A DNA stretch of 64,000 nucleotides from an uncultured bacterium (GCA_964652255.1 CAZZBM010000001.1:530985-594984); one strand, 5' to 3'. Counted from the first letter of the stretch, positions 15,456 to 53,493 are shown. Notes: a model not told the origin generated them from the sequence alone. Numbers and translations: made by a program.

Positions 15456-15767
15456 ATGAATTTTTTATCCTTTCTTTTTAGGGACCCTATTGATTATAAA
15501 AAATTATATACAAAAGAAGTCATTCTTTTAGATGTAAGGACAGTTGAAGAATTTTCTAGAAAATCAATTCAAGGGAGTCAGCATCTTCCTTTACAAGAAT
15601 TAGGAGAAAAATATAAAAAATTAGATAAAAATAAAACTTATTTTATCTATTGTGCCAGTGGTGGAAGAAGCAGAACAGCCATGAATTTTTTAAAAAAACA
15701 AGGCTTTAATCATGTTTATAACACAGAAAGTGTGGAAAAAACAAAAACTATTATTGAATCAAAATGA
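15456..15767 (+). CDS. Single-domain rhodanese (sulfurtransferase)
   Basis: Active-site loop YCASGGRS (CxxGxRS) in a ~100 aa alpha/beta domain. Confidence 0.8.
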   Translation: MNFLSFLFRDPIDYKKLYTKEVILLDVRTVEEFSRKSIQGSQHLPLQELGEKYKKLDKNKTYFIYCASGGRSRTAMNFLKKQGFNHVYNTESVEKTKTIIESK

Positions 15768-15946
15768 ATTTTACAAAAATTTTTTTCTTATTTTTATTAG
15801 CCTTTATCATAAGAGATAAACCCATGGCTCAAAATTCAATCAATGTAGCATTTGAAATAATACCAGTAGAAAATGCTACTAATGCAACAACTTCTCAACC
15901 AAGCTATATAATTAAAATAAATGCTCATGATAAAAAAAAATTTTAG
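15764..15946 (+). CDS. Signal-peptide-bearing N-terminal fragment of the downstream LRR protein (frame broken at A9)
   Basis: The ATG overlaps the rhodanese stop (ATGA). Hydrophobic N-terminus MNFTKIFFLFLLAFII. Ends ...GAT AAA AAA AAA TTT TAG in the A9 tract. Confidence 0.5.
   Translation: MNFTKIFFLFLLAFIIRDKPMAQNSINVAFEIIPVENATNATTSQPSYIIKINAHDKKKF
15932..15940 (+). repeat. A9 homopolymer at a frame break
   Basis: Nine consecutive A read directly. It separates the two frames of the LRR gene. Confidence 0.95.
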
Positions 15947-16047
15947 ATTTAAGCTCTTTAAATATAGAGTATTTAAATTATTTAAAGACTTTTGATACGG
16001 TAGAAATATTAATCTTAAAAAATAATAATTTAACCTCAAAAGAGTTA

Positions 16048-16887
16048 ATGAATTTAAAGGATCATTTTCCTAATTTAAAAGAATTAGATCTATCCAGAAA
16101 TAATATTAAAGATTTAAACTTTTTAAACAATCTTACAAAATTAGAAAAACTTGATGTTAGCGGCAATCCTCTTGATGATCTGGTTATTGAGAATCACCCT
16201 TCTCTTAGGGAATTTATTTTTATGTCTAAACCAGGTTATTTTAAAAGATTTTCCTTTAAAAACTTACCTTCTTTAGAAAAAATTTATGTTACTATTGACG
16301 AAGAAAGTCCAGCTGGGTCTTTCATTTATCCAAGAGAACCTTTTGAGTTAAGTTTTTTACCTAGCTTAAAAACACTATATATGGACGCTATTTCTCATTA
16401 TAAATTTCATCTTGAAGGAGATTTTTCTGCTTTAAAATATTTAACTTATAGACAGACTAAAGTTCGTTATCTTGATTTTCTTTATTTTTTTCCTAATATT
16501 GAAGTTTTGGATCTTTCTTATAATGACATTGATGAATTTAACCCTTTAACATATTTAAAAAAATTAAAAGTTTTAGATCTCACTTTTAATCCCTTAATTG
16601 ATCTTCCAGAAAATTTATCTCCCGTTTTGCAGATTGTTTTTTTAGATAGAAGTACTGTGACAGGACTTCATCCTCTTTTAGCGATTCCCTCTGTTGAATT
16701 TATTTCTGCTGATTCATGCTCTTGGATTAAAAAGATGATTCCAGAATATAAACCTATTATGGGGGAAAAAGAAGTTAGTCTTTATGGGTCTTTTAGTGGA
16801 TTAACAACACAGGAAAGAAAAACTATTAATGTAGAAAAAAAAGCTCTAGAAGAAGTAGGAGTTAGGGTTTATACTGATGATTTTTAA
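16048..16887 (+). CDS. LRR protein (frame is open and LRR-like from 15934)
   Basis: LRR units LKELDLSRNNIKDLNFL, LEKLDVSGNPL, IEVLDLSYNDIDEFNPL and LKVLDLTFNPL. The upstream in-frame sequence KKILDLSSLNIEYLNYLKTFDTVEILILKNNNLTSKEL is also LRR-like. Confidence 0.75.
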   Translation: MNLKDHFPNLKELDLSRNNIKDLNFLNNLTKLEKLDVSGNPLDDLVIENHPSLREFIFMSKPGYFKRFSFKNLPSLEKIYVTIDEESPAGSFIYPREPFELSFLPSLKTLYMDAISHYKFHLEGDFSALKYLTYRQTKVRYLDFLYFFPNIEVLDLSYNDIDEFNPLTYLKKLKVLDLTFNPLIDLPENLSPVLQIVFLDRSTVTGLHPLLAIPSVEFISADSCSWIKKMIPEYKPIMGEKEVSLYGSFSGLTTQERKTINVEKKALEEVGVRVYTDDF

Positions 16888-16944
16888 AATTTAATAGGAT
16901 TAAAAATTTGATCTTTTTTTTAAAAAATGTCATCATAAGCCTTT

Positions 16945-17127
16945 ATGTTTTTTATTATTTTTTTTCTAAAGCTCTTTCTTCTTTCTTGCTCTACCCAGCA
17001 AGATAAACAATTTGATCCTCTTGATTCTTTTGTACCTTCTACAAACAAAGATGTTCAAGCTTATGATTCAGAAGAAGAGGTTTCAGTTCATACTTTAGAT
17101 AAAGATGAACGTTCTATATTTGATTGA
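16945..17127 (+). CDS. Small putative lipoprotein (60 aa)
   Basis: MFFIIFFLKLFLLSCSTQQ has the lipobox LLSC. The acidic tail overlaps the nagZ 3' end convergently. Confidence 0.4.
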   Translation: MFFIIFFLKLFLLSCSTQQDKQFDPLDSFVPSTNKDVQAYDSEEEVSVHTLDKDERSIFD

Positions 17128-18077
17128 ACTCTATTTATCTTTTCTATTTTTTTTAAAAGAAAATTTTCATTCAATTCTCCATTTTTAATAGCTTGTTCAA
17201 TGATTTTATTAACTTGATTAACAAGATTTGGTTGAAATTCTTCTGGATATTTTACTCTCATTTTTCCACTAGAAGCAAGGTCATTTTGAGAAAATAAAAG
17301 AAGATCATGTCCTGATTTTAAAGAGAATATTACTCTTTCTTTTAAGGAGTAATTTAAAAGTGCTCCCATATGAAGATCATCAGTAATAAGTAGCCCAGGA
17401 TAATTTTTTAAATGCTGCTTAATAAAATCTTTATCAAAAGTAATAGGTAAAGCATTTTCTTTTAAAAGAACATGAGCAGAAAGAATACAAGGGCTTTTTA
17501 GTTTTAAAAAAGGTTCTAATTCTTTTTTTTGATAGTTTTCTAAATAAAAAAGTCCTTGGTGTGAATCTTGATTGAGAGTAGCACTTCCATGACCTGGAAA
17601 ATGTTTAATGCAGGAGAGAATTCCTACTTCATTGTAAGCTTTAATAAAATCTTCAGCTATAGAAATAATTTTTTTAGTATCATCAGAAAACGCTCTATTT
17701 TTCATAATAGAGTTTTTGTCCCAAAGATCAACTAGAGGAGAATAATTAAGATTAATTCCAAGATTTTTTAAAAATAAAGCTTGTTCTTTAAAGTAAGCAT
17801 AGCGTTCAGGAGAGTTCATTTTGGAAACAAGAGTAGGATCTTTAAAAGAATAATGATCTTTTAATCTGTTTACTGAAGGGCTTTCAAAATCTGTAGAAAG
17901 AATTTGATTCTTTGGAAATTGAGCTAAAAAATTTTTAATTTCTTCTAGATTTTTGCTCTTAAAATCCGAATAAAAAAAGATATAACCAGCTTGGTTGCTG
18001 TTGATTTCTTCCATAAAAGAAGTAACACAAAGTTTTTCAAACATATTCTTAGTTATAGCTTTTTTTTTTACAATCAT
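17088..18077 (-). CDS. nagZ: Glycoside hydrolase family 3 beta-N-acetylglucosaminidase (NagZ-like)
   Basis: Motifs IKHFPGHGSATLNQDSH and ITDDLHMGAL. No signal peptide. The true start may be an internal Met (MFEKL or MEEIN). Confidence 0.8.
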   Translation of the reverse strand: MIVKKKAITKNMFEKLCVTSFMEEINSNQAGYIFFYSDFKSKNLEEIKNFLAQFPKNQILSTDFESPSVNRLKDHYSFKDPTLVSKMNSPERYAYFKEQALFLKNLGINLNYSPLVDLWDKNSIMKNRAFSDDTKKIISIAEDFIKAYNEVGILSCIKHFPGHGSATLNQDSHQGLFYLENYQKKELEPFLKLKSPCILSAHVLLKENALPITFDKDFIKQHLKNYPGLLITDDLHMGALLNYSLKERVIFSLKSGHDLLLFSQNDLASSGKMRVKYPEEFQPNLVNQVNKIIEQAIKNGELNENFLLKKIEKINRVQSNIERSSLSKV

Positions 18078-18375
18078 AAACTCTTACTTCATAAAGAAAA
18101 TTTTCGATTTTTTCTGAACCATGAAAAGAATAAGTGTACTCTTTTTTTATAAGATAAAAAGTATTACCAAAAAGTTCCAAGCTGTTTTTTTCTTCTATTT
18201 TTTTTAAAACATTTTTTTTATTAGGACCAGACATAATAATGCTTGCAATAAAATTACATTTTTTTGGTTCTTTTTCTGAAAAATTAACAGAAGAGAGATC
18301 TCTAGAAGAAGAACAAGATTGAAGACTAAGAATGATTATAAAGATCATCTGGATGAATAAAATAAATCTTTTCAA
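18049..18375 (-). CDS. Hypothetical lipoprotein
   Basis: MKRFILFIQMIFIIILSLQSCSSS has a lipobox. Confidence 0.45.
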   Translation of the reverse strand: MKRFILFIQMIFIIILSLQSCSSSRDLSSVNFSEKEPKKCNFIASIIMSGPNKKNVLKKIEEKNSLELFGNTFYLIKKEYTYSFHGSEKIENFLYEVRVYDCKKKSYN

Positions 18376-18898
18376 GATTTATAAATCTTAAGCTTAAGAT
18401 CTTAAAAATAAAACTACTTATTTTAAAAAAGTCATTTTCTAATGGAGTTGAAGAAATTTTTTGTGAGACGTTATTTTTTTCAAATTTGATAAAATTAATT
18501 TTATTTTCTCTGATAATATATTTTTTTAAAAGTATTTCTTTTCTATCCAAAAGAAGATCTTCAAATTTACTTGGCAGAGGAAGATAAATCTTTTTTATTT
18601 TTGATTTTTTTTTAAAAAAATTTTTTATTTTAAAAAATTGATTCTTTTTTTTATCTTTTATGTAGGAATTATCAATCAAAATATTAGCTTGTACGGCTGG
18701 TTCTTCTAGAAGATTATGATTGTTGATGAGTTGATTATAAGAATCAGGTGATGGAATTTCAAATCCAGCTCTTTCTTCATTGAAATAAACTTGTAAAAAT
18801 ATTTTTTTTGAATTTTTACTATTATTAAAGGGTAGTGATTTGAAGTATTGTTTCTCTAATTCAGAACAAGAAAAAATAAAAAAACAAAGAAAAAACAT
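18326..18898 (-). CDS. Hypothetical lipoprotein
   Basis: MFFLCFFIFSCSELEK has the lipobox IFSC. Lys/Asn-rich. Confidence 0.45.
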   Translation of the reverse strand: MFFLCFFIFSCSELEKQYFKSLPFNNSKNSKKIFLQVYFNEERAGFEIPSPDSYNQLINNHNLLEEPAVQANILIDNSYIKDKKKNQFFKIKNFFKKKSKIKKIYLPLPSKFEDLLLDRKEILLKKYIIRENKINFIKFEKNNVSQKISSTPLENDFFKISSFIFKILSLRFINLEKIYFIHPDDLYNHS

Positions 18899-19055
18899 CA
18901 GAAACTTATCTTAGTGGAGTTTTTTGCTTTAATACAGTAAATAAGTCTTTTTTACCAAAAAAGGAGGCTCTGTAGACAGAGTCTTTTTAAAAGAGTAGAG
19001 TTCAAGAAAAAAAGATTTTTGAAAAAAGAGTTCAAAGATCTAAAGGAGTGGATCA

Positions 19056-20135
19056 ATGATGTCTTTTCAAGAATTTTTATTGCCAGAAAAACTAAAAAAT
19101 AATGTAAAAAAAATGGGTTTTAATGAACCTACCCCTATTCAAGCTAAGGTTTTACCTTTGGCTTTTCAAGGGCATGACGTGATTGGATTAGCCCAAACAG
19201 GCTCAGGAAAAACAGCTGCTTATGCTATTCCAGGAGTTAAATATCTTTTGGAAAACAATCAAGGCAAAATTTTGATTTTAGTTCCTACAAGAGAACTAGC
19301 CTCTCAAGTGGCTGAAGTCTTTAAAAAGTTAATTTTAGATACTTCTTTAAAACAAGCCTTATTAGTGGGTGGTGTTCCTATGTATAAGCAGATAAGAGAT
19401 CTTAAATTTAAGCCAAGAATTTTTATTGGAACTCCTGGAAGAATTAATGATCTTTTAAAAAGAAAGATGCTTAGATTAGAAGATGTTCAGTATTTAGTTT
19501 TTGATGAAGTGGATAGAATGTTAGATATTGGGTTTCAAGTGCAAGTTGATGAAATCTTAAAATACTTAAAACAAAAAAAACAAACTTTATTTTTTTCAGC
19601 TACTTTAAGTCCTAAAGTCTCTAGTTTAGTGAAAAACTACTTAATAGATCCTAAAAAAATAACCATAGGAACAATTAATAAACCAGTGGCTTTATTAGAG
19701 CAAAAAACAATTAAAGTAAATGAGAAAGAAAAGTACACATCTTTAAAAGATGCTTTAATAAAGATTGATGGATCAAGTTTAATTTTTGTTAAAACAAAAC
19801 ATATGTCAGCTAACTTAGCAAAAAAACTCAAGGAAGATGGTTTTTTCACAGAAGCTTTTCATGGTGATTTAAGTCAAGGTGCTAGAAATAGAGCCATACA
19901 GTCTTTTAAGAGAAATGATAAAGCTATTCTAGTAGCGACAGATATCGCTTCTAGAGGACTTGATATTGATCATATTAAATGTGTTTTTAATTTTGATCTT
20001 CCTCATAATCCAGAAGATTTTGTTCATAGAGTGGGTAGAACTGCTAGAGCAGGAAGAACAGGTCAGTCTATTACATTTTTATCAAGAAAAGATGAATTTC
20101 TTTGGAAAAAAATCTTAAGGTTAATCAATAGTTAA
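19056..20135 (+). CDS. DEAD-box ATP-dependent RNA helicase (core only)
   Basis: Q motif FNEPTPIQ, then AQTGSGKT, PTRELA, DEVD (motif II variant), SAT, and HRVGRTARAG. Confidence 0.9.
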   Translation: MMSFQEFLLPEKLKNNVKKMGFNEPTPIQAKVLPLAFQGHDVIGLAQTGSGKTAAYAIPGVKYLLENNQGKILILVPTRELASQVAEVFKKLILDTSLKQALLVGGVPMYKQIRDLKFKPRIFIGTPGRINDLLKRKMLRLEDVQYLVFDEVDRMLDIGFQVQVDEILKYLKQKKQTLFFSATLSPKVSSLVKNYLIDPKKITIGTINKPVALLEQKTIKVNEKEKYTSLKDALIKIDGSSLIFVKTKHMSANLAKKLKEDGFFTEAFHGDLSQGARNRAIQSFKRNDKAILVATDIASRGLDIDHIKCVFNFDLPHNPEDFVHRVGRTARAGRTGQSITFLSRKDEFLWKKILRLINS

Positions 20136-20951
20136 ATTTTCTTCTTTTAAATAAGGAAGAGTTTTTAAAACTTCTTCCTTATTAATATCATTATTTCTAA
20201 TGTTTAAAATTTCTAAAGATGGGAGTTCCTTTATTGGAGTAACATCACAGATATAGTTATTTTCTATGTTAAGATAAGTAAGTTTTTTTTTATCTTGAAG
20301 ATAATCTAAATCTGTTAAAGAGTTGTTCATTAAGGAAAGATATCTTAATTGGCTAAGATTACGTAGACCTATGAGTTGATGTATCTCATTTCCATTAGCT
20401 ATCAGAAAATGAAGATTAAAAAGAATCCTTGCAAAATTAATATTATTTAAAGCATTGTAACTCACAGAAAGAGTTTTAAGTTGATGTAATTTACCAATAG
20501 AGTTAATATTTTTTGGATAAGTACCATTAAGATTTAAAAAAATAATAGATTTTAAATTTTCAATTTCTTTTAAATCTACATTCTTATTATAAGAAAGATC
20601 TAAAAATTTTAAATTTGGTAAAGAATAAAAATTAATTCTAAAAAAAAGTTTCTTTTTTGAGAGCTTAAGAACAATCATTTGAGAGAGAGTCTTGATTTTA
20701 TTATTTCTTAAATTGAGGTCTTCAAGAGAAGAAAGTTCATGAAGAGAAGAAAGATCTGAAATAGCATTAAAACTAAGATTTAGTCTTTTTAGTTTTTTAA
20801 CCTTTTCTAAGCCTTTTGTACTTGTAATTTTATTATAACTTAAATCAAGAACTTCAAGATCAGGATAAGAGGATAAATCAGGAATTTCAGTATATCCTTT
20901 TTTAGAAAGATTAAGTTCAGTGGTACTATGAACTATCCATAAAAAAAACAT
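20121..20951 (-). CDS. LRR protein
   Basis: About ten 22-residue repeats (LEVLDLSYNKITSTKGL, LKRLNLSFNAISDLSSL, LEDLNLRNNKIKTL, LKFLDLSYNKN, LRYLSLMNNSLTDLDYL, LTYLNIENNYICDV, LEILNIRNNDI). Confidence 0.78.
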   Translation of the reverse strand: MFFLWIVHSTTELNLSKKGYTEIPDLSSYPDLEVLDLSYNKITSTKGLEKVKKLKRLNLSFNAISDLSSLHELSSLEDLNLRNNKIKTLSQMIVLKLSKKKLFFRINFYSLPNLKFLDLSYNKNVDLKEIENLKSIIFLNLNGTYPKNINSIGKLHQLKTLSVSYNALNNINFARILFNLHFLIANGNEIHQLIGLRNLSQLRYLSLMNNSLTDLDYLQDKKKLTYLNIENNYICDVTPIKELPSLEILNIRNNDINKEEVLKTLPYLKEENLTID

Positions 20952-20975
20952 AAAGAATTTATCGGAAAAATTTTC

Positions 20976-22130
20976 TTATTTTAGAAGAGCTTCTAAAAAA
21001 GAAATAGGCATCACTACAACTTCACCTGCTTTCTTAAAATGATTTTCATTCTTTCCAACAATGTTTTTAACATAATCTTGATATTCTTTAGGTAAGTTTT
21101 CTATTTCAATTTCAGAGGGTTCAATAAAACGCCTAGGAGGATTATTCTCTATAAACAACATACTTGAAATAATATTAACATAATGAACGAGTTTTTTTTC
21201 CACCAAGGGCTCTTTTTGGCTTTCCTCAACAAGATTAATTTGTTGTCTTAAACCTTCTTGTTCCTGTAGATATTTTTCCAAAAGAAGTTTTCTTAAAACC
21301 TCTTCTTTTTGTTCTCTCAATTCGTCCATATTAAGACCCAAGGACTCAGTATTTTTTAATAATTCTTCTTTTGTTTGAGAGGTTAATACTTTTTTATAAA
21401 GAGCTGTTTTTAGGTCTAAATCATCTTTTATCAGCTTGGTTTCAGATTTTTTTTCATTGACCTCTTGACTGGAAAGATAGACAATTTTTTCAAAATTTTT
21501 TTCAATCTCTATTTGATCTAAATCTAGAGCAATTCCTTGAGCCTCCTCTAGTTGTTTATAAGCCAGATCTAACTGTTTTTTTCCTGAAAGGTGTTCTTTA
21601 ATACTTCTTTGAAGAAGACAAGCTTCTGGATTTTTTGGACAATCTAATTTAAGCCCCTTTAAACATAATTCAAAAGAAGATTCGAGATTTTCACTGTTTT
21701 CTTGTAAGAGACATATAGAGTCCTTGCATTTAAAAGAAGCAGTTTTTTTATTTAAGCAGTAGGCACCAATTTGTAGAAGTAAGCGTCTAGAGGTAAGACT
21801 ATCCATAAGCTTTAAAAGATCCATTCTGTTTAATTGTTGTTTACTTACTTTATAGCCCTTACCTAGGAGTCCTTCAAGAATTCTTTCCTGAAGAAATTCT
21901 TTGTTTTTTTTATTTTCTGGATAAAGATCTAAAAGATGAGTTTCATGGTTTAATGTTTTAATTTCTTTAGGGGTTAAACGATTCAAAATTTTATAATAAC
22001 AATCAATAGGATCTTTTTCATTAAGACAAGATTTGAAAGTAGGGTGATTTAAAAGTCGATCTTGGGCTAGTTTTTTTTTCAAAGCTTCAGCAGCTTCTTG
22101 TTCTAGAGAAGAAAATAAAAAGAACAACAT
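20976..22130 (-). CDS. Hypothetical protein with a Cys-containing middle and a coiled-coil C-terminal half
   Basis: Long ORF 24 nt upstream of the LRR gene. No recognisable motif. Confidence 0.5.
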   Translation of the reverse strand: MLFFLFSSLEQEAAEALKKKLAQDRLLNHPTFKSCLNEKDPIDCYYKILNRLTPKEIKTLNHETHLLDLYPENKKNKEFLQERILEGLLGKGYKVSKQQLNRMDLLKLMDSLTSRRLLLQIGAYCLNKKTASFKCKDSICLLQENSENLESSFELCLKGLKLDCPKNPEACLLQRSIKEHLSGKKQLDLAYKQLEEAQGIALDLDQIEIEKNFEKIVYLSSQEVNEKKSETKLIKDDLDLKTALYKKVLTSQTKEELLKNTESLGLNMDELREQKEEVLRKLLLEKYLQEQEGLRQQINLVEESQKEPLVEKKLVHYVNIISSMLFIENNPPRRFIEPSEIEIENLPKEYQDYVKNIVGKNENHFKKAGEVVVMPISFLEALLK

Positions 22131-22172
22131 TTAAGGTTATTGTAATTTTTTTTATAAAAATAATAAAGTTTT

Positions 22173-23231
22173 TTAATAAAAATCAAAACTTAAAGAATAA
22201 GCTCCTTTTTCTTCGAATTTCAAAGACACTTGCCTATCAGTAGAGCCTTTATTGAAAATATATGGAAAAGAAGGTGATAAGTTGCTGAAGTTTGTAGTCT
22301 CGTACTCATATTGAATTGTTGGAGGAGAGAACTTAAAATTTAATGATATATCTTTAGGTTTTTTGTCTCCAACGTCTTTAATTGTGAAGCCACTAGGATG
22401 ACCTGAATCTCTATATAGATCGATATATGTCCTAAGTGTCTTGGAAGAATTTTTGTATAGCTTAAAAATAATACTAATATACAAATATGTGTTTATAAAA
22501 AAAGTTGAATAATATAAAGCAATTTTTAGTTTTTCTAATGAAGGAAAAAGTTGAGGTTGTTCAATATCTATTAGATAGCTTGAAGCAGATATACTATTTT
22601 TTTTCAATTTCAATTTTATTTAATATATAAAAATCAATGGATAATAACTTTAAAGAAGAAAAAAAAGTAGAATTAGTTTTTTTATCAAAAAGTAATTCAG
22701 TACTTAATATGTTATAAAAACGACGTTTTGGTGTAATTTGTTGAAAACAAGAAGAATCTTTTAAATAGATTGTTAGAAACAATTTTTCTAGCTTGTTGAG
22801 TTTGCTTATATCTTTAAAAAGTGCTAAATATTCATCGGAATTATCTATATATACGCTAAATGCAAGTGTATTAAAATAGAAGATATGTTCCATGGGGTTG
22901 AGTAAAGAATATAAATTCTTTTTATCTTTTAAAACTTTTGAATAAGATAAAATTCCATTAAACTTAGTTGAGTCATTATTAATTATTTTTTTATATCTTC
23001 TTCAAAGCTTGCTACATCTGAAAATATATTTTGAAAATATGATGCTATCGTGGGCTCAAGTACATATGAATTAGAGTCAGAAGGAGCTTAAAATGACAAA
23101 AAGTCAGAATTTGAGAAACCAAAAGTAGATGTTTCATTAGAAAAAGTAATGTAGGGATATGTGAATGTAAACGGAGTATTATCTTCGTTATTTGAAAATA
23201 ATATAAAAAAGATATTAAAAAAAATTATTAT
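22173..23231 (-). pseudogene. Decayed secreted-protein gene: no ATG, one in-frame TAA, one frameshift in A8
   Basis: Track ORFs 22594-22893 and 22173-22613 join if the A8 tract (plus-strand T8 at 22597-22604) loses one base. The frame of 22594-22893 continues upstream through TAA at 23090-23088 to a signal-peptide-like IIIFFNIFFILFS. That peptide begins at ATA (23231) 6 nt after AAGGA. Confidence 0.55.
22597..22604 (-). repeat. A8 (coding strand) homopolymer at a frame break
   Basis: Eight consecutive T on the plus strand, at the junction of two overlapping ORFs. Confidence 0.95.
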
Positions 23232-23330
23232 TTTTTTCCTTATATTTAAAGTAAATTAGCGATAGAAAAGTACTGTGTTGTAAGAAAAAAGTCTATCTAA
23301 TATGTAAAAATGCAAAAAATCAAAATTAAT

Positions 23331-26088: not shown

Positions 26089-26323
26089 CTTGAACCAGAG
26101 GGATTTTAATAAGATTTTTTTTTCTTCTTGGAGCTAAATGAAGAAGAGGAATAGATTCTTTAACTTCATCTTTTCTAAGATGAAGATAATTTTTTTTAGA
26201 AACGATCATTTTAGCTGAGAGAGAATCTAAAAACTCTGTATAATGAACAATTTCTAAAAGATCTTCTTCTAGTTCTTGAGTTTTTTTGATCCCAGCTAGC
26301 TCAAATATTTTATCTATCTTCAT
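26081..26323 (-). CDS. gatC: Asp/Glu-tRNA(Asn/Gln) amidotransferase subunit C
   Basis: 80 aa, immediately upstream of and overlapping gatA. Weak sequence signal (LRKDE). Confidence 0.7.
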   Translation of the reverse strand: MKIDKIFELAGIKKTQELEEDLLEIVHYTEFLDSLSAKMIVSKKNYLHLRKDEVKESIPLLHLAPRRKKNLIKIPLVQDV

Positions 26324-28122
26324 TAAAAAACCCTTTCAAGAAGGTAATATTTTGAAGGGATTTCGTCAAGAAAGAGGCTAGGGATTTGATACTGAAAGCT
26401 TCCATAAAGATATCTTGTTTTAGAATAAGAAAGATAAAGCTTTTTTTTAGCTCGAGTGAGAGCTACATAAAAAAGTCTTCTTTCTTCTTCTAGGTCATCT
26501 TTTTGAAGACTTTGATAAGAGGGAAAAATTTGATTTTCAAGACCTAGAATGAAGACATGGTCAAACTCTAAGCCTTTAGTGGCATGAATGGTCATAAGTT
26601 GAACTTGAAAAGTAGTTTCTCTTACTTCGTCTTTGAGTTGAACTTGGTAGAGAAAATCTTCTAGTTCTTCTATGGAAACTTGTTTTAAAACTGATCTTAA
26701 TTCTTGAACATGATCTATTTTTTCTTGACCATTCTTTTCTTTCTTTAATTCTTGTAAAAAAGAAGTTTTTTCTAAAAGAAAATCAAGAATTTTGTTAGGT
26801 TCAATTTTTGACTCTACTAGAGCTTGAAGTTCTTTAATAAGGGTGAAAACTTCTTTGAAAGATTCTTGTACTTTTTTTGATCCCAAAGAAAATGACTCTA
26901 AAAAAGAGAAAAGAGGTCTATCTAAACTTTGTTGTAAAAAAAGTAGTTTATCAATAGATGTTTTTCCTAGAGATCTTTTAGGAACATTAAGAATTCTTAA
27001 GAGATAAAAATCATCTTCTGGCTGAAACATAAGTTTAAAATAAGCTAAAAGATCTTTAATTTCTTTACGATCATAAAATTTAAGCCCACCATAAACTTGA
27101 TAGGAAATTTTTTTCCTAGAAAGAGCTTCTTCTAAGTTTCTGGAAAGAAGATTATTTCTGTAGATAATAGCAATGGATTCTTCTTGAGAAATATTTTTAA
27201 TTTTTTCAGCAATAAAATTCGCTTCTACTTTTTCATCAAAACATTCTTTGACCTCAATCAAAGGTCCTTCTTCTTGCTCACTAAAAAGATTTTTCTCTTT
27301 TCTTTCTTTATTGTTTTGAATGACTTCATAGGCGGCTTCTAAAATAGTTTTTGAAGATCTGAAATTTTGTTCTAGTTTAAAGATTTTTACCTCTGGAAAA
27401 TGTTCTTCAAAGTGTAAGATATTTCTAATGTCAGCTCCTCTCCAAGAATAAATACTTTGATCTTCATCTCCTACAACACAAAGATTTTTATTGTAGCTTC
27501 TTAAGTGCTTAAGAAGAAGAAATTGAGCTCTGTTAGTATCTTGATATTCATCAACAAGAATATGCGTATAGAGAGAAGAGTACTTTTGTTCAAGGTGAGG
27601 CTTCTCATGAAAAATTTCTAAAGTTTTAGTAAGAAGTGAAGAGAAATCTAGAGCTTTATTGTGATGTAAAATATCTTCAAAAAGAAGAAAATATTTATGA
27701 AAAAGAGAATCTCTTATAGGGTAATCTTTATAAAAACCTTCTTGCTTGATGCTTTCTCTGTAGTTAAGAAGTTCATAGGCTGAAAAGAGATTTTTTTCTC
27801 CCTGAGAGAGAAGAAGATCATCCATGATTTTTTTGCTATCTTTTTCATCATAAACAGAAAAATTTTTAATCCATTCAATTCTAAGAAATTTTACACAAAA
27901 AGCATGAAAAGTAGATACTTCACAAGAAGTTTTTAACCTAGAAAGAATTTCATGAACAGCTTTATTAGAAAAAGTTAAAGTCAGAATTCTTCCTTTTAAA
28001 TCTTGCAATCTTTGAATTCTTTCAACTAAAACTCTTGTTTTTCCTGACCCAGCACCAGCCAAAATCATCACAGGTCCGTCTAAATGAGATAAAGCTTCTT
28101 GTTGTTGTGGTGTAAAGTTCAT
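26323..28122 (-). CDS. pcrA: UvrD/PcrA/Rep-family superfamily 1 DNA helicase (short)
   Basis: Motifs AGAGSGKT, TFHAFC, VDEYQDTN, VGDEDQSIYSWRGA, QNFRS, TIHATKGLEF and YVALTRAKK. Confidence 0.88.
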   Translation of the reverse strand: MNFTPQQQEALSHLDGPVMILAGAGSGKTRVLVERIQRLQDLKGRILTLTFSNKAVHEILSRLKTSCEVSTFHAFCVKFLRIEWIKNFSVYDEKDSKKIMDDLLLSQGEKNLFSAYELLNYRESIKQEGFYKDYPIRDSLFHKYFLLFEDILHHNKALDFSSLLTKTLEIFHEKPHLEQKYSSLYTHILVDEYQDTNRAQFLLLKHLRSYNKNLCVVGDEDQSIYSWRGADIRNILHFEEHFPEVKIFKLEQNFRSSKTILEAAYEVIQNNKERKEKNLFSEQEEGPLIEVKECFDEKVEANFIAEKIKNISQEESIAIIYRNNLLSRNLEEALSRKKISYQVYGGLKFYDRKEIKDLLAYFKLMFQPEDDFYLLRILNVPKRSLGKTSIDKLLFLQQSLDRPLFSFLESFSLGSKKVQESFKEVFTLIKELQALVESKIEPNKILDFLLEKTSFLQELKKEKNGQEKIDHVQELRSVLKQVSIEELEDFLYQVQLKDEVRETTFQVQLMTIHATKGLEFDHVFILGLENQIFPSYQSLQKDDLEEERRLFYVALTRAKKKLYLSYSKTRYLYGSFQYQIPSLFLDEIPSKYYLLERVF

Positions 28123-29777
28123 TCTACTGTAATAGATTTAGCTAAATTTCTTGGTCGATCAATAGGACGTTTTTTTAAAAGAGAAAATTCATAACTAAAA
28201 AGTTGGGTTAAAACATTAAGAAAGAGACTATCTAAATATTCATTTTCTTCATGAGCATGAAAAATTTCTACAAAAGAGTGACGACTAAGAATTTCTCTGG
28301 CTGCAATTTCATTTTTTTGAGTAAAATTTTTAGTGTTAAGAATGAAAGTTAAGGATCTTTCATCAATAAGAGCTAATGGACCATGTTTAAATTCTGAAGA
28401 GTAGTATCCTTCACAAGGATAGTAGGAAACTTCTTTAAGTTTCAAAGCTCCTTCTAGGGCTAGAGAATAAGAAAGGGAGCGCCCTAGAAAGAAAAATTTT
28501 TCTAGGTGAGAATATTTTTGAGCTAATTTTTTTATAGCGTGATGATGCATGAGTGCTTTTTGAATGGTCTTTGAGGCTTTTTTTTCTGGGTCTAAGTGAA
28601 GTCCAAAAATAAAACTATAAATCTGATGAGTGAAAACTTTTGTACTTGCCACAGCAACTTCTTCTCCAGCATGCAAAAGAAGAGACTTTGTATTAAGAGC
28701 TAGATAAGAGTGAGCTTGATTGACCAAAGAATAAATGGAATAAGTAGGAAATTCTTCTAAAATAGGTAAAAGATCTGCTGTTTCACCAGATTGAGAGATA
28801 ATAAGAAGAGGAGCTTTTTTTTTAACAAGATAAGGAGAAGATCTTAATTCTCCCCCTATAAAAACATCAACAGAAAATTTTTGTGTTTTGAGTAAAAGTT
28901 CTTTGATAAAAAGAGCAGCATGATAAGAACTTCCACAACCTGTTATATATAATTGCTTCTCTTGAATACATTCAGAAAGAAGTTCTTCAAATAAAATGTG
29001 ATTAAAATGTTCAGTGAAAGTATTCAAACTTTCTGCTTGATCATAAATTTCTTTGATCATAAAGTGATCAAAGATTCCTTTAGATATTTTTTTTTTCTTT
29101 TGAGGAAAAAAAGTTTTTGTTAATTGAAGGGGTATTAGATCTTTGTGAAAAAAATGAAATTCTTGATCAAGTGAAAAAATAATGTTTTCAGGTAGGAGGA
29201 ATATTTCATCATCTTTTAAACCCAAAGGATCGGAAGCAAGAGAAAGACTTTTAGCAGAGCAAACAAGAGAGAGTCCTTTTTTAAGTCCATAAAGAATTTT
29301 ACTTTCATGATGGATAAAAACAAAAACGTTTTTTCCTTTAATTTTTTCATAAAGTATTTTTAAGCAAGATAAAATATTAGAATTTTCTTTGTAAAGCTTT
29401 GTTAAAATATTTAAAAAAAGAAGAGTGTCTGTTGTTTCTGGAGAGAAAAAAATATTAAATTCTTCACATAGTTCTTGAACGTTTTCAATAATGCCATTAT
29501 GTACAACAGAAAAAAATTCATTTTGAAAAGGATGAGTGTTGTCTAAAGAAACCGGTCCATGGGTTGCCCATCTACTATGACCTAAAATGAAAGAAGATTC
29601 AATAAAAGGAATTTTTTTTGATTCAAAAGCTCCTAAATGTTTTTCAATTAAAAATTGTTGATTTTTTTCATAAACAAAACCAAAAGAATCATACCCTCTA
29701 TAAGAAAGGTAATTTAATCCTTCTTTTAAAGAAGTAAAAGCTTCAGTTTGGTTTTTAAAAGCTACAATTGCACACAT
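28119..29777 (-). CDS. glmS: Glutamine--fructose-6-phosphate aminotransferase
   Basis: The N-terminal MCAIVA supplies the nucleophile Cys. Two SIS domains (GCGSSYHA, SQSGETADL). The C-terminal KSITVE is the canonical GlmS end. Confidence 0.9.
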   Translation of the reverse strand: MCAIVAFKNQTEAFTSLKEGLNYLSYRGYDSFGFVYEKNQQFLIEKHLGAFESKKIPFIESSFILGHSRWATHGPVSLDNTHPFQNEFFSVVHNGIIENVQELCEEFNIFFSPETTDTLLFLNILTKLYKENSNILSCLKILYEKIKGKNVFVFIHHESKILYGLKKGLSLVCSAKSLSLASDPLGLKDDEIFLLPENIIFSLDQEFHFFHKDLIPLQLTKTFFPQKKKKISKGIFDHFMIKEIYDQAESLNTFTEHFNHILFEELLSECIQEKQLYITGCGSSYHAALFIKELLLKTQKFSVDVFIGGELRSSPYLVKKKAPLLIISQSGETADLLPILEEFPTYSIYSLVNQAHSYLALNTKSLLLHAGEEVAVASTKVFTHQIYSFIFGLHLDPEKKASKTIQKALMHHHAIKKLAQKYSHLEKFFFLGRSLSYSLALEGALKLKEVSYYPCEGYYSSEFKHGPLALIDERSLTFILNTKNFTQKNEIAAREILSRHSFVEIFHAHEENEYLDSLFLNVLTQLFSYEFSLLKKRPIDRPRNLAKSITVE

Positions 29778-29778
29778 T

Positions 29779-30771
29779 TTATAAAGGTTTATCTAACCTA
29801 GAAGCTCTTGTTAAAGCAAGAGTTTTCCTCTTAACTTTTTTGCTCACTGTTGTTCCAGCCCCTGTTTTACCATAATCTTCTATAACTATTGGAGCTATAA
29901 GATTAGTATTAGCTCCAATAAAGGTATGATTTTTGATAATAGTTTGATGTTTTTCAGTCCCGTCAAAATTGCAAGTAATAGTTCCTGCTCCTATATTGTT
30001 ATGAGACCCTAAAGAGCTATCCCCAAGATAAGTATGGTGTTTGATTTTGTTATGATTTTTTCCTTTACTTCTTTTGATCTCCACAAAGTTACCTAAAATA
30101 TTATCATGACCCAAATGACAATCTTGAGTATGACAAAAGGGGCCAAGGATAGATTTTTGTTTGAAAGAAGAATTTTTAAGATAACAAAAGCTTTTGATTA
30201 AAGAATCTTTACCTAGTTTAATAGAATTTAAAACATTAAAAGATTCAATAGTGCAGTTATGATCAAATATACTATTTATAATGGTCACATGAGGATGAAT
30301 ACAACAAGGTCCTTTAAAAATTGTATCATGATCAATGTAAGTAGAAGAAAAATCTAAAATATGAACACCTTTTTTTTTTAATTTTTTATAGAATTTAAAT
30401 TTTAATTTTTGTAAAATTTCTTGTTCATGTTCTTTAATGTTTAGAGTTTTTACATATTGAATTGATTGAAAATCTTTTTCCTGAAGATTTTTTAATTGTT
30501 CAAAAGAAATAGTAAAAGAAATACAGTTTTCTAAAGTTGTTTTTTTTTCTTGAACTAAAGTATTTTTTTTTGGTTTTAATTTTAACAAGGGATAATCGCC
30601 GTTAACATAAAAACAAAAATCTTTTCGGTCTGTTTTTTTTTTCACTAAAATTTCTTTATAAGAAGAAATAAAAATAGCTTTAGGATAGAGTTCTGAAAAA
30701 TATTGCGTTAATTTTTTGCCTAGAAAAGAAAAATCTTGAGAAATTTTTACAAAAGTATGAACTTTTTCCAT
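29779..30771 (-). CDS. glmU: GlmU-like protein: conserved left-handed beta-helix acetyltransferase domain, shortened and degenerate N-terminal domain
   Basis: The C-terminus HHTYLGDSSLGSHNNIGAGTITCNFDGTEKHQTIIKNHTFIGANTNLIAPI aligns by eye with E. coli GlmU residues ~360-430. The N-terminal ~135 aa lack the L-x2-G-x-G-T-R-M signature. Confidence 0.7.
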   Translation of the reverse strand: MEKVHTFVKISQDFSFLGKKLTQYFSELYPKAIFISSYKEILVKKKTDRKDFCFYVNGDYPLLKLKPKKNTLVQEKKTTLENCISFTISFEQLKNLQEKDFQSIQYVKTLNIKEHEQEILQKLKFKFYKKLKKKGVHILDFSSTYIDHDTIFKGPCCIHPHVTIINSIFDHNCTIESFNVLNSIKLGKDSLIKSFCYLKNSSFKQKSILGPFCHTQDCHLGHDNILGNFVEIKRSKGKNHNKIKHHTYLGDSSLGSHNNIGAGTITCNFDGTEKHQTIIKNHTFIGANTNLIAPIVIEDYGKTGAGTTVSKKVKRKTLALTRASRLDKPL

Positions 30772-30850
30772 AACAATTTTATAAATGGACTTTTTTATAG
30801 AGAAAAGCCCTTTTAGACTTTTTTCCTAAAAGTCGATAATTTTTTTATCT

Positions 30851-32965
30851 ATGTCAAAGAAATCTTATCCTTGTCTTGTTGTTACTGATAATTATCTTCT
30901 ACCGAAAATGAAAAAAGAATTTTCATTTAAGAAAAAAGAATCTTTGGAAATTTTAAAAAAAACTGAAAAACATCTTGTTCTTCTTTATCGTGATCAAATA
31001 AAATCTATTCTTTGTGAGATTGTAAGAAAAGAAACAGATAAAGTCGTTTTGAAAGGGATTTCTTTTGTAGAAGTCTTAGATAAGAATAAAAACTTAGTTC
31101 AAGTTGAAGAGATTAAAGAAGAATATGAGTTAGCTTTAGGAGAAAAACTTCAAGGAGATCTTTTAAAACAATCTATTGTGGATCTTCTTATTCATGAAAA
31201 AAGTGAAGAACTTAGTCCACAACAAATTTTAGATTTAAGATCTATTGATAGTTTGTTTGATTTTTTTAATGAAACAGTTTCAAAGTTAAATCTTTCACCG
31301 GAGTTGGAAAAAAAATTTTTTAATGAAAAAAATATTATTAAAAAACTAAAGACTCTTCAAGAAAGTCTAGAAAAGAAAAATGATTCTTTACCAAGACTTT
31401 TTGAGTTTCATCCTTTTTTTTCACCTAGAAATAATCCTTATGAAGAAAAATTAATGAATAAAAAATTTACTTCTGAAGTGAAAGAAGAACTTTTAAAAGA
31501 AGCTAAAAAATTAGATCGCTTGCCTCAAGAATCACAAGAATCTTTTGTGATTAAGCAATATTTAGACTTTGTTCTTTCTCTTCCTTGGGGAAATTTAAAA
31601 GAAGGGGCATTGGATTTAAAAGAAATAGAAAAAAAATTTCATTTGAGTCACTATGGTTTAGATGAAGTCAAAGAAAGAATTTTGGACTATCTTTTTAGTT
31701 ATTCTTTAAAATTACAAAGTCCTATTCTTTGTTTAGTTGGTCCCTACGGAGTAGGGAAAACAACTTTTGTTCAAAACCTAGCTGAAGCTATTGATCGTCC
31801 TTTTGAAAAGATTAGTTTGGCTGGTTTGAGTGATGAAGCTGAAATTAGAGGTCATAGAAAAACTTATGTAGGTTCAATGCCAGGAAGAATTTTATCTCTT
31901 TTAAAAAAAGTTCAAGTAGACAATCCTGTTATTCTTCTTGATGAGGTTGATAAGGTAGCTAAACAAACTCGTGGTGATGTCTATGGAGCACTGTTAGAAT
32001 TACTGGATCCAAGTCAGCAGAGTCAATTTAGAGATCATTTTCTTGGTTTAGATTATGATCTTTCAAAAGTTTTATTTGTTTGTACAGCTAATCATATTGA
32101 AGATATCCCTAGAGCTTTAAAAGATAGAATGGAATTTATTTATTTAGAGGGATTTTCTTTAGAAGAAAAAAAGATTATTGCTCAAAACTATTTATTACCT
32201 AAAATTAGAAAGGAATACAAATTAAAAGATTTTGAATTTAGTCCTAAATTAATAGAAAAGATTATATTAAATTTAGATCAAGAATCAGGGGTAAGACAAT
32301 TAGAAAAATTTTTAAGATCATTTACAGAAAGGCAAATAAGAAAAAATTTTTTAGGTCCTTTTGAGGAACAAGATTTATTACCTTTTTTAAAGAAAAAAGA
32401 TCTTCCTCTTTTAGATCGTTATCCTGGTAGCTTTGATCTTTTAGCTTATACGCCCTATGGTGGGGTTCTTATTCCTTTAGAAGTTCTTCTTATTGATGGA
32501 ATGAAAATGGAACTTACTGGTGAAATTGGAGAAACTTTTAAGGAATCTATTAAGGTAGCTTATTCTTTAGTAAAACGTTCTTTAAAATCTTTAGGTTTAG
32601 TTGAAAATTTTTTTGATCAAAAAAGTTTTCATATTCATGTTCCTCTTATTCTTGGAGAAAAACAAGGTCCTAGTGGTGGTCTTCCTCTGTATGTTGCTAT
32701 GATTTCAAGCTTGATGAATAAATCTTTACCACAAGATTTAGTTATGAGTGCAGAATTGAGTCTTCAGGGTCAAATACTTCCTGTTGGAGGAATTAAAGAA
32801 AAACTATTGGCTGCTCAAAGAGCTGGAAAAAAAAGAGTTTTTCTTTCTGTTCATAATCAAAAAGATATTCCTCTAAATCTTGATTTAGAGGTTTATTTTT
32901 TTCATTCTATTCAAGAAGTTCTTTCTTTGCTATTCTTTGAAGAAAGAGAATTACAAGTCATATGA
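30851..32965 (+). CDS. lon: ATP-dependent Lon protease
   Basis: Walker A GPYGVGKTT, Walker B LLDEVDK, catalytic Ser in QGPSGG, and Lys in GGIKEKLLAAQRAG. Confidence 0.9.
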   Translation: MSKKSYPCLVVTDNYLLPKMKKEFSFKKKESLEILKKTEKHLVLLYRDQIKSILCEIVRKETDKVVLKGISFVEVLDKNKNLVQVEEIKEEYELALGEKLQGDLLKQSIVDLLIHEKSEELSPQQILDLRSIDSLFDFFNETVSKLNLSPELEKKFFNEKNIIKKLKTLQESLEKKNDSLPRLFEFHPFFSPRNNPYEEKLMNKKFTSEVKEELLKEAKKLDRLPQESQESFVIKQYLDFVLSLPWGNLKEGALDLKEIEKKFHLSHYGLDEVKERILDYLFSYSLKLQSPILCLVGPYGVGKTTFVQNLAEAIDRPFEKISLAGLSDEAEIRGHRKTYVGSMPGRILSLLKKVQVDNPVILLDEVDKVAKQTRGDVYGALLELLDPSQQSQFRDHFLGLDYDLSKVLFVCTANHIEDIPRALKDRMEFIYLEGFSLEEKKIIAQNYLLPKIRKEYKLKDFEFSPKLIEKIILNLDQESGVRQLEKFLRSFTERQIRKNFLGPFEEQDLLPFLKKKDLPLLDRYPGSFDLLAYTPYGGVLIPLEVLLIDGMKMELTGEIGETFKESIKVAYSLVKRSLKSLGLVENFFDQKSFHIHVPLILGEKQGPSGGLPLYVAMISSLMNKSLPQDLVMSAELSLQGQILPVGGIKEKLLAAQRAGKKRVFLSVHNQKDIPLNLDLEVYFFHSIQEVLSLLFFEERELQVI

Positions 32966-33746
32966 AACTTTATCTTGTTGGTGGGTCTGTAAGAGATCTT
33001 CTACTAAAAAAAAAATTCTAGATTTTGATTATACAGTAGTGAATTCTTTTGAAGAAGAATTTTTTAAACATGGATATAAAAAAAAAAGTGATTATTATCC
33101 AGTTTATCTTCATCCTAAGTATCCTCAAGTGACTTTAGCTTTAGCAAGAAAAGAAAAGTTATTAGATTTTTCTAAAAGATTATTTTCCTTTCAAATAAAA
33201 GATGTTTCTTTAGAAGAAGATCTTTTTAGAAGAGATTTTACTGTTAATGCAATAGCTTTTGGAAAAAAAATTATTGATCCTTATGGAGGGCTTCAAGATT
33301 TAAAAAAAAAACTACTGAAACCTTTAGGGATTCACTTTAAAGAAGATCCTTTAAGGTTTTTCAGAGCAGCTCGTTTTGCTGCTCAGCTAGATTTTGAATT
33401 AGATTTAAAAGAGACTTATTTTGGAGAAGTGAGTCTAGGAAAGCAAGAGGAAGAATTAAGAAAAGTGTTAAGTTTAAAAAAACCTCAAAAATTTTTTATT
33501 TTATCTTCAGAGTTAAAGATACCTTTTTTACATGTAGTAGAAAAAAAATTTTTAACAGGCCTTGAACAATTCTTAGGTTTTAACCAAAGAGTTATTCTTT
33601 TTAATTTTTTTTATCCTAAAAGTCCTATTTTTAAAAATAAAAAACAAGACCATCTTTTAAAAAAAATTTTAAGTGAAAACTCTTTACATAGTTTTGTTGA
33701 TCGTGAAGAATGGTTAAGGTTAAGATCTTTTTTATGGGTAAATTAA
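32962..33746 (+). CDS. cca: CCA-adding tRNA nucleotidyltransferase (short, no HD domain), reading frame broken in an A10 tract
   Basis: The ATG at 32962 overlaps the lon stop (ATGA) and encodes MKLYLVGGSVRDLLLKKK, then hits TAG at 33019. The track ORF (32937-33746) carries the rest in another frame (ILDFDYTVV...RRDFTVNA...EDPLRFFRAARFAA). One extra A in 33006-33015 joins them. Confidence 0.8.
33006..33015 (+). repeat. A10 homopolymer at the cca frame break
   Basis: Ten consecutive A read directly. Confidence 0.95.
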
Positions 33747-33883
33747 TTTTTTATTTTTTCTTTTATTTTTTATTATTCTCTTTTCCAGTTAAGGGGAAAC
33801 CTCTTTTTAATGTTTTACAAGAACATAGTCACTTTTATGTAGATCGATTTTATGAAAAAATCTTATCAAAAATCAATAATTAA
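33734..33883 (+). CDS. Possible small secreted protein (49 aa), below the track cutoff
   Basis: ATG at 33734. Encodes MGKLIFYFFFYFLLFSFPVKGKPLFNVLQEHSHFYVDRFYEKILSKINN with a hydrophobic N-terminus. No Shine-Dalgarno. Could be chance in AT-rich DNA. Confidence 0.2.
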   Translation: MGKLIFYFFFYFLLFSFPVKGKPLFNVLQEHSHFYVDRFYEKILSKINN

Positions 33884-33918
33884 GCTTTAATTTTAATGAA
33901 TCGATAACTCTTTTATGA
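33881..33918 (+). repeat. 38-nt upstream/start module, copy 1 (taagCtttaattttaatgaatcgataactcttttatga)
   Basis: Identical to 34806-34843 except for one base. Confidence 0.9.
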
Positions 33919-34808
33919 AATTATTATTATTATTATTATTATTTACAGCTTGTTCATCAGGGTCAACTTCTAGTTCTGTTGTTAGTTCTAGTGAATCTTT
34001 TTATAGTTTTAAGTATTTTGAAAATGATGCTTTAATATCTTCTGGAGCTGAATCAATTTTAAGTTTAAGCCAAAAAACAAGTGTTGTTATTTCTTTTCAA
34101 GATTATGTTCATATTTATATTAAACTAGATTTGAACAACCTGAATAGCCCTACCAACACTGTGACAAGTCCTTATGTGGCTAATATTGCTTATGCAGATC
34201 CTTTAATATGTTTAGATGGCGAAGACGGTTATGATCCTATTTATTCTGGAGCACCATTTACTATTCCTGAGGGGCTTACTGAGGAAGATATTCAATCTGG
34301 ATTCGCTGCCCATATTTTATCTTGTAAAAATTTTTTATTAGGTTCTATTCTTCCACTCTCACCAAAAGATCCTAGTACTTATTTATTAAAACCTAATATG
34401 TCCATTTTTAAAATGGATGGAACATTTTTAGATATCTCTGTGACAGGAACAATAAATTGGAGTCCATTAAGTGGATATCTTCATATTGACCCTTATAATC
34501 CTCAAACAGCTCAAGAAGAAAATTTAGAACTATTTGTTTACCTTAATTCTGGAGCTATTTTATTTGATGAACAACTTATTACATGTGAAGGATGTGCTAT
34601 GAGTATAGCGTTAGAAAATTCTCCTAATTTTTCCTACAATGATGTTGTATATAAAATTACCATTAATAGAACTAATAACTCTGAAAAAGGTGTTCTTACT
34701 ATCCCAGAAGGTGTTTTTCAAGATTCAGAGGGAAATAATTACTTAGGGTTTTATCCTTTGCATTTACCTTGGGGAGAACCAATTGTTAAATTTGCCCCAG
34801 AAATTTAA
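33915..34808 (+). CDS. Surface lipoprotein, paralog 1 of a tandem pair (C...P-E-G-x-F family)
   Basis: MKLLLLLLLFTACSSGSTSSS carries a lipobox and a Ser tether. Shares blocks with the N-terminal ~290 aa of the next gene (TGTINW, LITCEGCAMSIA vs LITIGNSCNMSIS, TIPEGVFQDSEGN vs EFAEGAFVNSED). Confidence 0.6.
   Translation: MKLLLLLLLFTACSSGSTSSSVVSSSESFYSFKYFENDALISSGAESILSLSQKTSVVISFQDYVHIYIKLDLNNLNSPTNTVTSPYVANIAYADPLICLDGEDGYDPIYSGAPFTIPEGLTEEDIQSGFAAHILSCKNFLLGSILPLSPKDPSTYLLKPNMSIFKMDGTFLDISVTGTINWSPLSGYLHIDPYNPQTAQEENLELFVYLNSGAILFDEQLITCEGCAMSIALENSPNFSYNDVVYKITINRTNNSEKGVLTIPEGVFQDSEGNNYLGFYPLHLPWGEPIVKFAPEI
33921..33941 (+). repeat. (TTA)7 trinucleotide repeat encoding Leu7 of the signal peptide
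   Basis: Seven exact TTA units in frame. Confidence 0.95.
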
Positions 34809-34843
34809 GTTTTAATTTTAATGAATCGATAACTCTTTTATGA
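34806..34843 (+). repeat. 38-nt upstream/start module, copy 2
   Basis: See 33881-33918. Confidence 0.9.
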
Positions 34844-34857
34844 GATTTTTATTATTA

Positions 34858-34864
34858 TTTTTTT
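34858..34864 (+). repeat. T7 homopolymer inside a signal-peptide coding region, at a frame break
   Basis: Seven consecutive T. With T8, the ATG at 34840 reads MRFLLLFFLSLVSCS in frame with the long ORF. Confidence 0.95.
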
Positions 34865-34868
34865 ATCC

Positions 34869-37190: not shown

Positions 37191-37197
37191 GATTTTT

Positions 37198-52173: not shown

Positions 52174-52222
52174 AAAAAATTCTATCGTCTTTTTAAGAGT
52201 AAAACTTAACTAAAGACCCTTA

Positions 52223-52251: not shown

Positions 52252-52264
52252 AAGCACTCAAAGT

Positions 52265-53477: not shown

Positions 53478-53493
53478 AAAAGAGAATTACATC

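Follow-up and report, generated by a model that had tools for sequence, protein, structure and literature searches.

Introduction

In the insect endosymbiont Blochmannia, nearly all insertions and deletions (indels) lie in homopolymers or simple repeats, and they are removed from genes by selection (PMC3622351). The coding sequence of B. vafer contains 153 poly(A) runs of at least 9 nt, and eight of its genes are frameshifted in such runs; in Blochmannia, genes with one poly(A) or poly(T) indel are treated as potentially functional, and for frameshifted genes about 30% full-length transcripts have been reported (PMC3017870). In Buchnera, single-nucleotide insertions made during transcription concentrate in A/T runs, at a frequency that grows exponentially as the runs lengthen to 11 nt (PMC5574713). 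Here we analyze one strand of a 64,000-nt stretch of DNA from an uncultured bacterium (GCA_964652255.1, CAZZBM010000001.1:530985-594984; hereafter the window), in which four genes are broken at A/T runs: a gene for a leucine-rich repeat (LRR) protein, a decayed gene for a putative secreted protein, the tRNA nucleotidyltransferase gene cca and a lipoprotein gene. All coordinates are counted from the first letter of the window.

We consider it probable that the breaks are real one-base indels in the DNA, made by replication slippage at A/T homopolymers, and that they belong to a slow, ongoing erosion of genes in a small AT-rich genome related to the Bacteriovoracaceae. A preliminary description of the same DNA had offered three explanations: sequencing or assembly error, phase variation of surface genes, and rescue of tolerated frameshifts by slippage. 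Ordinary erosion at mutational hot spots was not among them and is the simplest reading. The phenomenon is already well described, and what is new is the lineage, not the mechanism.

Results

Five frame breaks in four genes

The window contains five homopolymer frame breaks in four genes, all in A/T runs of 7-10 nt. The repair at each tract was found by simulated changes of its length. One base must be added at the A9 tract of the LRR gene, the A10 tract of cca and the T7 tract of the lipoprotein gene, which together are all three genes with a single lesion, and also at an A7 tract of the decayed gene. At the A8 tract of the decayed gene, one base must be removed. All four breaks listed in the preliminary description were confirmed, and a fifth (T7 on the plus strand at 22986-22992) is added here. 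A single-base repair per gene, as proposed there, suffices for the LRR gene, cca and the lipoprotein gene, but the decayed gene has further lesions beside A8. Of the four broken genes, three indeed code for exported or surface proteins, as stated there. The tract was said to lie at or next to the signal peptide, and this is true of the lipoprotein gene only; the LRR tract forms codons 57-59, about 35 codons beyond the signal peptide, and the A8 tract lies in the middle of its gene.

The LRR gene (LRR1) occupies 15764-16887 on the plus strand. Its upstream frame runs from the ATG at 15764 to the TAG at 15944-15946 (N-terminal open reading frame (ORF) 15764-15946) and encodes 58 aa that resemble a signal peptide. 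The A9 tract at 15932-15940 is one base short. Downstream, the frame is open over 15934-16887, and one additional A fuses both frames into a product of 374 aa. The repaired product matches LRR families of Pfam, with matches that begin just 3′ of the tract. The ATG of LRR1 overlaps the stop codon of the rhodanese gene as ATGA, and the ATG of cca (32962) overlaps that of lon in the same way; these overlaps therefore support both ATGs as true starts. As encoded now, neither the LRR product nor the lipoprotein would keep its signal peptide.

On the minus strand, a 276-aa LRR protein without a signal peptide of its own (20121-20951) and a 384-aa ORFan (20976-22130) lie in the same frame, separated by one TAA plus 24 nt (20952-20975). 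They may be one gene cut by a nonsense mutation.

The cca gene (32962-33746, plus strand) is split after codon 18 by an A10 tract at 33006-33015, which is one base short; the stop codon in the 0 frame is the TAG at 33019-33021. With A11 the product has 261 aa, and the PolyA_pol head domain (PF01743) is matched across the break (residues 3-119, E = 4.5e-19). When the repaired protein is aligned with nine homologues, no gap appears across GGxVRD...DxD. With A11, GGxVRD and DxD stand the canonical 8 residues apart, and the present A10 is therefore a 1-nt deletion. Residues G7, G8, R11 and D12, encoded 5′ of the break, and the catalytic D21 and D23, encoded 3′ of it, are all invariant in the alignment. 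The homologues are all single ORFs without a frameshift. In its present frame the cca product would lose the GGxVRD motif.

Repaired cca is short, with 261 aa vs 336-410 aa in the homologues, and neither the RNA-binding domain of PolyA_pol (PF12627) nor an HD domain was detected by Pfam search. Where tRNA genes generally encode CCA, the enzyme only repairs tRNA 3′ ends and is dispensable, as established for E. coli. The window has two tRNA genes, tRNA-Arg(ACG) at 15318-15394 on the minus strand and tRNA-Ala(UGC) at 52265-52340 on the plus strand. Because both encode the 3′ CCA in the DNA, cca is probably dispensable here. Given CCA in the tRNA genes and a short enzyme in which no further domains were detected, a broken housekeeping gene is no paradox.

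A glmU-like ORF (29779-30771, 330 aa) has hexapeptide repeats only, with no N-terminal nucleotidyltransferase domain detected. Together with cca, it suggests that proteins throughout this genome may have lost domains or diverged strongly. A further likeness concerns the A9 and A10 sites (15932-15952 and 33006-33027), whose surroundings are almost identical in sequence, A(9-10)TT(T/C)TAGATTT. Both read KKKILD after repair and have a TAG in the 0 frame two codons past the run. This likeness is probably a coincidence that comes from AT-rich codons.

The broken lipoprotein gene, lipoB (34840-36545, plus strand), is split inside its signal peptide. The T7 tract at 34858-34864 is one base short, and the 0-frame stop is the TGA at 34873-34875. 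With T8, the repaired product of 568 aa starts with MRFLLLFFLSLVSC, which is a lipobox-containing signal peptide of the lipoprotein type. A search of the protein collection with this product returned only itself, which makes it an ORFan. Immediately upstream lies lipoA (33915-34808, plus strand), an intact tandem paralogue starting with MKLLLLLLLFTAC, in which a (TTA)7 repeat encodes the Leu7 core of the signal peptide. The two proteins are 33% identical over 190 aa. Their genes share an identical 33-bp 5′ region, at 33886-33918 for lipoA and 34811-34843 for lipoB, which ends in the start codon (TTTAATTTTAATGAATCGATAACTCTTTTATGA). Conservation of a regulatory or 5′ element could explain it, as could a recent gene conversion.

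Further small ORFan genes, at least seven of them (139-208 aa), are found at 51727-57256 on both strands around tRNA-Ala. Each encodes a lipoprotein signal peptide with a lipobox, and none of their products matched a Pfam family.

The decayed gene (22173-23243, minus strand) is an ORFan whose product is a putative secreted protein. It carries at least four lesions, comprising two frame breaks, a TAA and a lost start. Its A8 tract (T8 on the plus strand, 22597-22604) is one base too long, and removal of one base joins a 99-aa ORF to a 146-aa ORF. At the A7 tract (T7 on the plus strand, 22986-22992), one additional base restores EEDIKKIINNDSTKF. An in-frame TAA at 23088-23090 is a nonsense codon and not a homopolymer lesion. 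No ATG, GTG or TTG stands at the head of the signal-peptide-like N-terminus, and no Pfam family matched the gene. It is a true pseudogene with several lesions. Since it carries an in-frame nonsense codon, a change of tract length could not activate it again.

Another gene remnant lies on the minus strand at 36581-37195. It keeps only the C-terminal DUF4143 domain (profile positions 21-159 of 160); the N-terminal AAA ATPase half is absent, and the first start codon is about 78 codons into the open frame. This truncated gene is further evidence of erosion. Between lipoB and the DUF4143 remnant, which are convergent, lies a perfect 32-bp palindrome (36554-36585, core AAGACTGAAGAATTCTTCAGTCTT), probably a bidirectional terminator.

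The tract lengths recur in a second assembly

We compared the window with Logan contigs that were assembled independently (k = 31) from run SRR12404947. Four of them, L015 (14175-26232), L013 (32395-33915), L012 (33889-34840) and L019 (34814-36585), are exact substrings of the window; L019 ends at the palindrome described above. They are base-identical to the window over 16.2 kb and cover all four tracts first reported as well as 84 A/T runs of at least 7 nt, 10 of which have at least 9 nt. The A9 and A8 tracts are the same in L015, A10 is the same in L013, and the T7 of lipoB is the same in L019. An assembly from 31-mers that is free of errors over 12 kb of such sequence implies that the reads are accurate. 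Neither cca nor the lipoprotein has an in-frame variant in the protein collection searched, whose 5.8 billion clusters represent about 15 billion sequences.

Breaks are confined to homopolymers and avoid core genes

A/T runs are in strong excess in the window. Runs of at least 7 nt number 301, vs 56 expected from base composition (about 5 times), and runs of at least 9 nt number 42 vs 7 expected. In coding sequence there are 265 runs of at least 7 nt, among them 141 7-mers, 85 8-mers and 25 9-mers, and 30 runs of A in the sense strand reach at least 9 nt. Such runs of at least 7 nt make up 3.4% of coding bases, and 4-5 randomly placed indels would all fall inside them with a probability of at most about 1e-6. 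When ORF junctions and long start-less ORF leaders in the window were scanned, no frame break outside homopolymers was found.

Nearly all runs are in frame: 260/265 of the coding runs of at least 7 nt (98%), and 28/30 of the sense-strand A runs of at least 9 nt. As reported before, ftsW is intact at its 11-nt run at 2117-2127 (Pfam covers residues 5-342 of 343), although this A11 reads T11 in the sense strand. The broken runs are 5/46 in surface ORFans plus cca, vs 0/177 in recognizable core genes (Fisher p = 3e-4). When cca is moved to the core genes, p is 0.003. At the level of genes, four of about 70 in the window are broken, and exported or surface proteins account for three of these four vs about 20% of window genes (Fisher p = 0.049).

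The preliminary description had suggested a census of ORF pairs that would be fused by one base more or less in a homopolymer; run on the window, it gave 34 candidates. Without homology evidence it is not specific, because homopolymers are so common that one lies near most gene junctions. The candidates inspected are ordinary overlapping or abutting genes of operons, and those at 18060, 26115, 37193, 49901 and 49939 were examined and rejected as frame breaks.

The genome is AT-rich and related to the Bacteriovoracaceae

The window has a GC content of 29.5%, is 92% coding and lies in a single contig of 745,960 bp. Its gene content includes the dcw/mur cluster, gatCAB, lon, groESL and a complete aerobic respiratory set, as well as three LRR proteins and about a dozen ORFan lipoproteins. 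The genetic code is standard; TGA terminates 18/57 genes, and an alternative code was therefore rejected. An Rfam search of the window returned the two tRNAs and nothing else.

GroEL of the window is 74-78% identical to proteins of Bacteriovoracaceae and Halobacteriovorax. Its best match (83%) is on an activated-sludge contig, L020, that has the same GC content and homopolymer density as the window and shares a trpS-trmA-mgtE-fabI block with it. The available 16.7 kb of this contig covers none of the four broken genes. With GatA as the query, the highest identity among GTDB representative genomes was 42%, without synteny, and the source contig is not itself part of that set. A protein search with repaired cca returned the window's own 269-aa ORF and next best matches of at most 53% identity; a scan of JGI metagenome contigs with the cca alignment gave at most 48%. 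The contigs carrying P0002 and P0004 had no synteny with the window. The organism appears to be an undescribed relative of the predatory Bdellovibrionota with a reduced genome, possibly associated with a host, that has kept genes for peptidoglycan synthesis and aerobic respiration.

The window also encodes, at 9669-10241 on the minus strand, a 190-aa small GTPase with a Pfam match to the Arf family (E = 1e-11). It is probably an MglA-like GTPase of the Ras superfamily, as in Bdellovibrio and myxobacteria.

Discussion

The breaks, their recurrence in a second assembly, their restriction to non-core genes and the additional lesions of the decayed gene are direct observations. From them we infer how the mutations arose, that the affected genes are dispensable, and whatever leaky expression there may be. 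Since A/T runs are about five times commoner than base composition predicts, they would be the dominant hot spots for indels. Selection would purge the resulting frameshifts from essential genes, and surviving breaks would therefore build up in dispensable ones. The dispensable set hit here would consist of the secreted ORFan with its several lesions, a single LRR gene out of three, a single ORFan lipoprotein gene out of about a dozen, and cca. The three genes with a single lesion may have been inactivated recently or may be only partly silenced. In these, the missing base could be supplied by a backward slip of RNA polymerase or a -1 slip of the ribosome, possibly at a useful rate at the A10 of cca and the A9 of the LRR gene, and probably at a trace rate only at T7.

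Three features that gene erosion should leave are present together in the window. The genome is small and AT-rich and long A/T runs are in excess in its genes, the indels lie in homopolymers and are depleted from essential genes, and several stages of decay stand side by side, from the decayed secreted-protein gene and the DUF4143 fragment to the three genes with one lesion.

Some points weigh against this reading. The single-lesion genes keep open downstream frames of 245-557 codons in a stop-rich genome, which fits continued selection equally well, and the conservation of all catalytic residues of cca fits continued selection as well as recent loss. The encoding of CCA was checked on two tRNA genes only. 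The split into core and dispensable genes was made post hoc, and two of the five breaks are in one gene. Run SRR12404947 may also underlie the deposited assembly, in which case the Logan contigs represent an independent assembler and not an independent chemistry. The comparison was made between consensus contigs, which give one length per tract. No close relative that would show the age or conservation of the frameshifts was found in any collection searched.

If the true genome had in-frame tracts, the breaks would be errors of homopolymer sequencing, polishing or assembly. Every break is at a homopolymer and four of the five tracts are one base short, a direction typical of long-read consensus errors; the single 746 kb contig suggests that long reads may have been used. 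We nevertheless regard error as very unlikely. The k = 31 assembly has the same length at all four tracts, nearly all other long runs are in frame, and a technical error, which is blind to gene function, should not avoid core genes as these breaks do. The decayed gene also carries substitution lesions that homopolymer error could not produce. The proposal that the LRR and lipoprotein genes are contingency loci, turned on and off at high frequency by tract length and caught by the assembly in the off state, does account for the enrichment of surface proteins among the broken genes. It also suits the position of the lipoB tract within the signal peptide, the tandem arrangement of lipoB with a paralogue that has an identical 33-bp 5′ region, and the many more small lipoprotein genes at 51.7-57.3 kb. 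A tandem lipoprotein pair with a common 5′ region recalls the variable lipoprotein families of Mycoplasma. However, relaxed selection explains the enrichment of surface ORFans equally well. A contingency locus would be expected to have an unusually long tract in the 5′ coding part or promoter of a surface gene, and here only the lipoB tract lies in a signal peptide; those of LRR1 (codon 57) and of the decayed gene (mid-gene) are far from the 5′ end. The tracts are no outliers among the 265 coding runs, and equally long ones occur in ftsW, glmS, glmU, cox1 and gatA. Both assemblies hold a single allele with no in-frame variant on record, and the decayed gene could not be turned on again. With ordinary tract lengths, one tract in a signal peptide and one allele assembled, nothing speaks specifically for phase variation, and we find it quite improbable.

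The closest analogy among the three earlier explanations is rescue by slippage, and it is plausible at A10 and A9, although efficient rescue is unlikely at A8 or T7. Under this proposal the cell would still require cca, the LRR gene and perhaps the lipoprotein gene, and these genes would be expressed when the polymerase inserts an A or U or the ribosome slips by -1, so that the downstream frame would stay under selection. All three single-lesion genes need one more nucleotide, which is the dominant type of transcription error in A/T runs. Both A9 and A10 read A_AAA_AAA in phase, and a -1 slip there would give exactly the repaired ...DKKKILDLSS and ...LLLKKKILDFD; the junction peptides predicted for the rescued products are DKKKILDLSSLNIEYLNYLK and DLLLKKKILDFDYTVVNSFEEEFFK. 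The long open downstream frames, the retention of all invariant residues of the cca head domain and the intact ATGA overlaps with the upstream genes point the same way. Both cca (A10) and LRR1 (A9) are otherwise intact genes with a single indel in a poly(A) or poly(T) run of at least about 9 nt, and lipoB (T7) and the decayed gene are not; T7 and A8 are short for useful slippage. A very recent mutation predicts open frames and conserved residues equally, and cca is likely dispensable with CCA encoded in the tRNA genes. In insect symbionts the key evidence was conservation of frameshifts across lineages, and here the searches gave no cca closer than 53% identity and no homologue of the lipoprotein. 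No stimulatory RNA structure was found 3′ of any site (z-scores -1.0 to +0.25). Programmed -1 ribosomal frameshifting was rejected, as the heptamer is present at the LRR and cca sites but no downstream fold exceeds shuffled controls and the cca homologues are unshifted. Judged from the sequence features listed, rescue as the general explanation is doubtful. Rather unlikely is the broader picture of a genome-reduced and probably host-associated Bacteriovoracaceae relative that uses its frameshifted genes through slippage at A9-A10 and perhaps switches ORFan lipoproteins by run length. If it were true, the "impaired and rescued" phenomenon of Buchnera and Blochmannia would be extended to an unrelated phylum and lifestyle.

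Gene erosion through replication slippage, which we prefer, has consequences for annotation. The four genes should be flagged as frameshifted or as pseudogenes, without silent correction. The 269-aa "cca", the 279-aa LRR protein and the 557-aa lipoprotein on record are spurious ORFs, and such splitting is to be avoided. The pattern marks this genome as one under the AT-driven homopolymer erosion known from insect endosymbionts. In a lineage near the predatory Bdellovibrionota, it suggests a host-dependent lifestyle with weak selection. The broken set hints at the functions that are being shed, namely an accessory LRR protein, accessory lipoproteins and the repair of tRNA 3′ ends.

Comparison with known systems

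Phase-variable families driven by simple repeats include Vlp and Vsp of Mycoplasma and the contingency loci of Campylobacter and Haemophilus. Like these lipoprotein families, lipoB stands in a tandem pair with a common 5′ region and has a homopolymer in the part that codes for the signal peptide. In contrast, its T7 is short and indistinguishable from hundreds of background runs, the same type of lesion is present in a cytoplasmic enzyme and in a dead pseudogene, and the consensus contigs show one allele. Programmed -1 frameshifting of the dnaX type shares with cca and the LRR gene an in-phase A_AAA_AAA, here with a 0-frame stop two codons on. It differs in that no downstream stem-loop is present here and in that the shift would be needed for the sole product, not for a second one.

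The rescue by transcriptional slippage of Tamas et al. 2008, as cited in PMC3017870 and PMC5009743, resembles our case in the A10 and A9 sense tracts within otherwise intact genes and in the correction by +1 nt, the most frequent slip of RNA polymerase. As it is described in those citing papers, it differs in that the 7-8 nt breaks here are too short for efficient slippage, and our case is known from DNA only.

The nearest likeness is to the genomes of Buchnera aphidicola and Blochmannia. Common to them and to the present genome are small size, low GC content (about 29% here) and a strong excess of genic A/T runs. Frameshifts occur only in A/T runs and are purged from core genes, and genes with a single lesion stand beside an advanced pseudogene (PMC3622351, PMC3017870). 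The organism here is related to the Bacteriovoracaceae (Bdellovibrionota) and is not a gammaproteobacterial insect symbiont. The genes hit are mostly ORFan surface proteins (LRR protein and lipoproteins) and not metabolic or replication genes, and genes for peptidoglycan and aerobic respiration are kept in the window. The density of broken genes is also higher, with four of about 70 genes in the window vs eight homopolymer-frameshifted genes in the whole genome of B. vafer.

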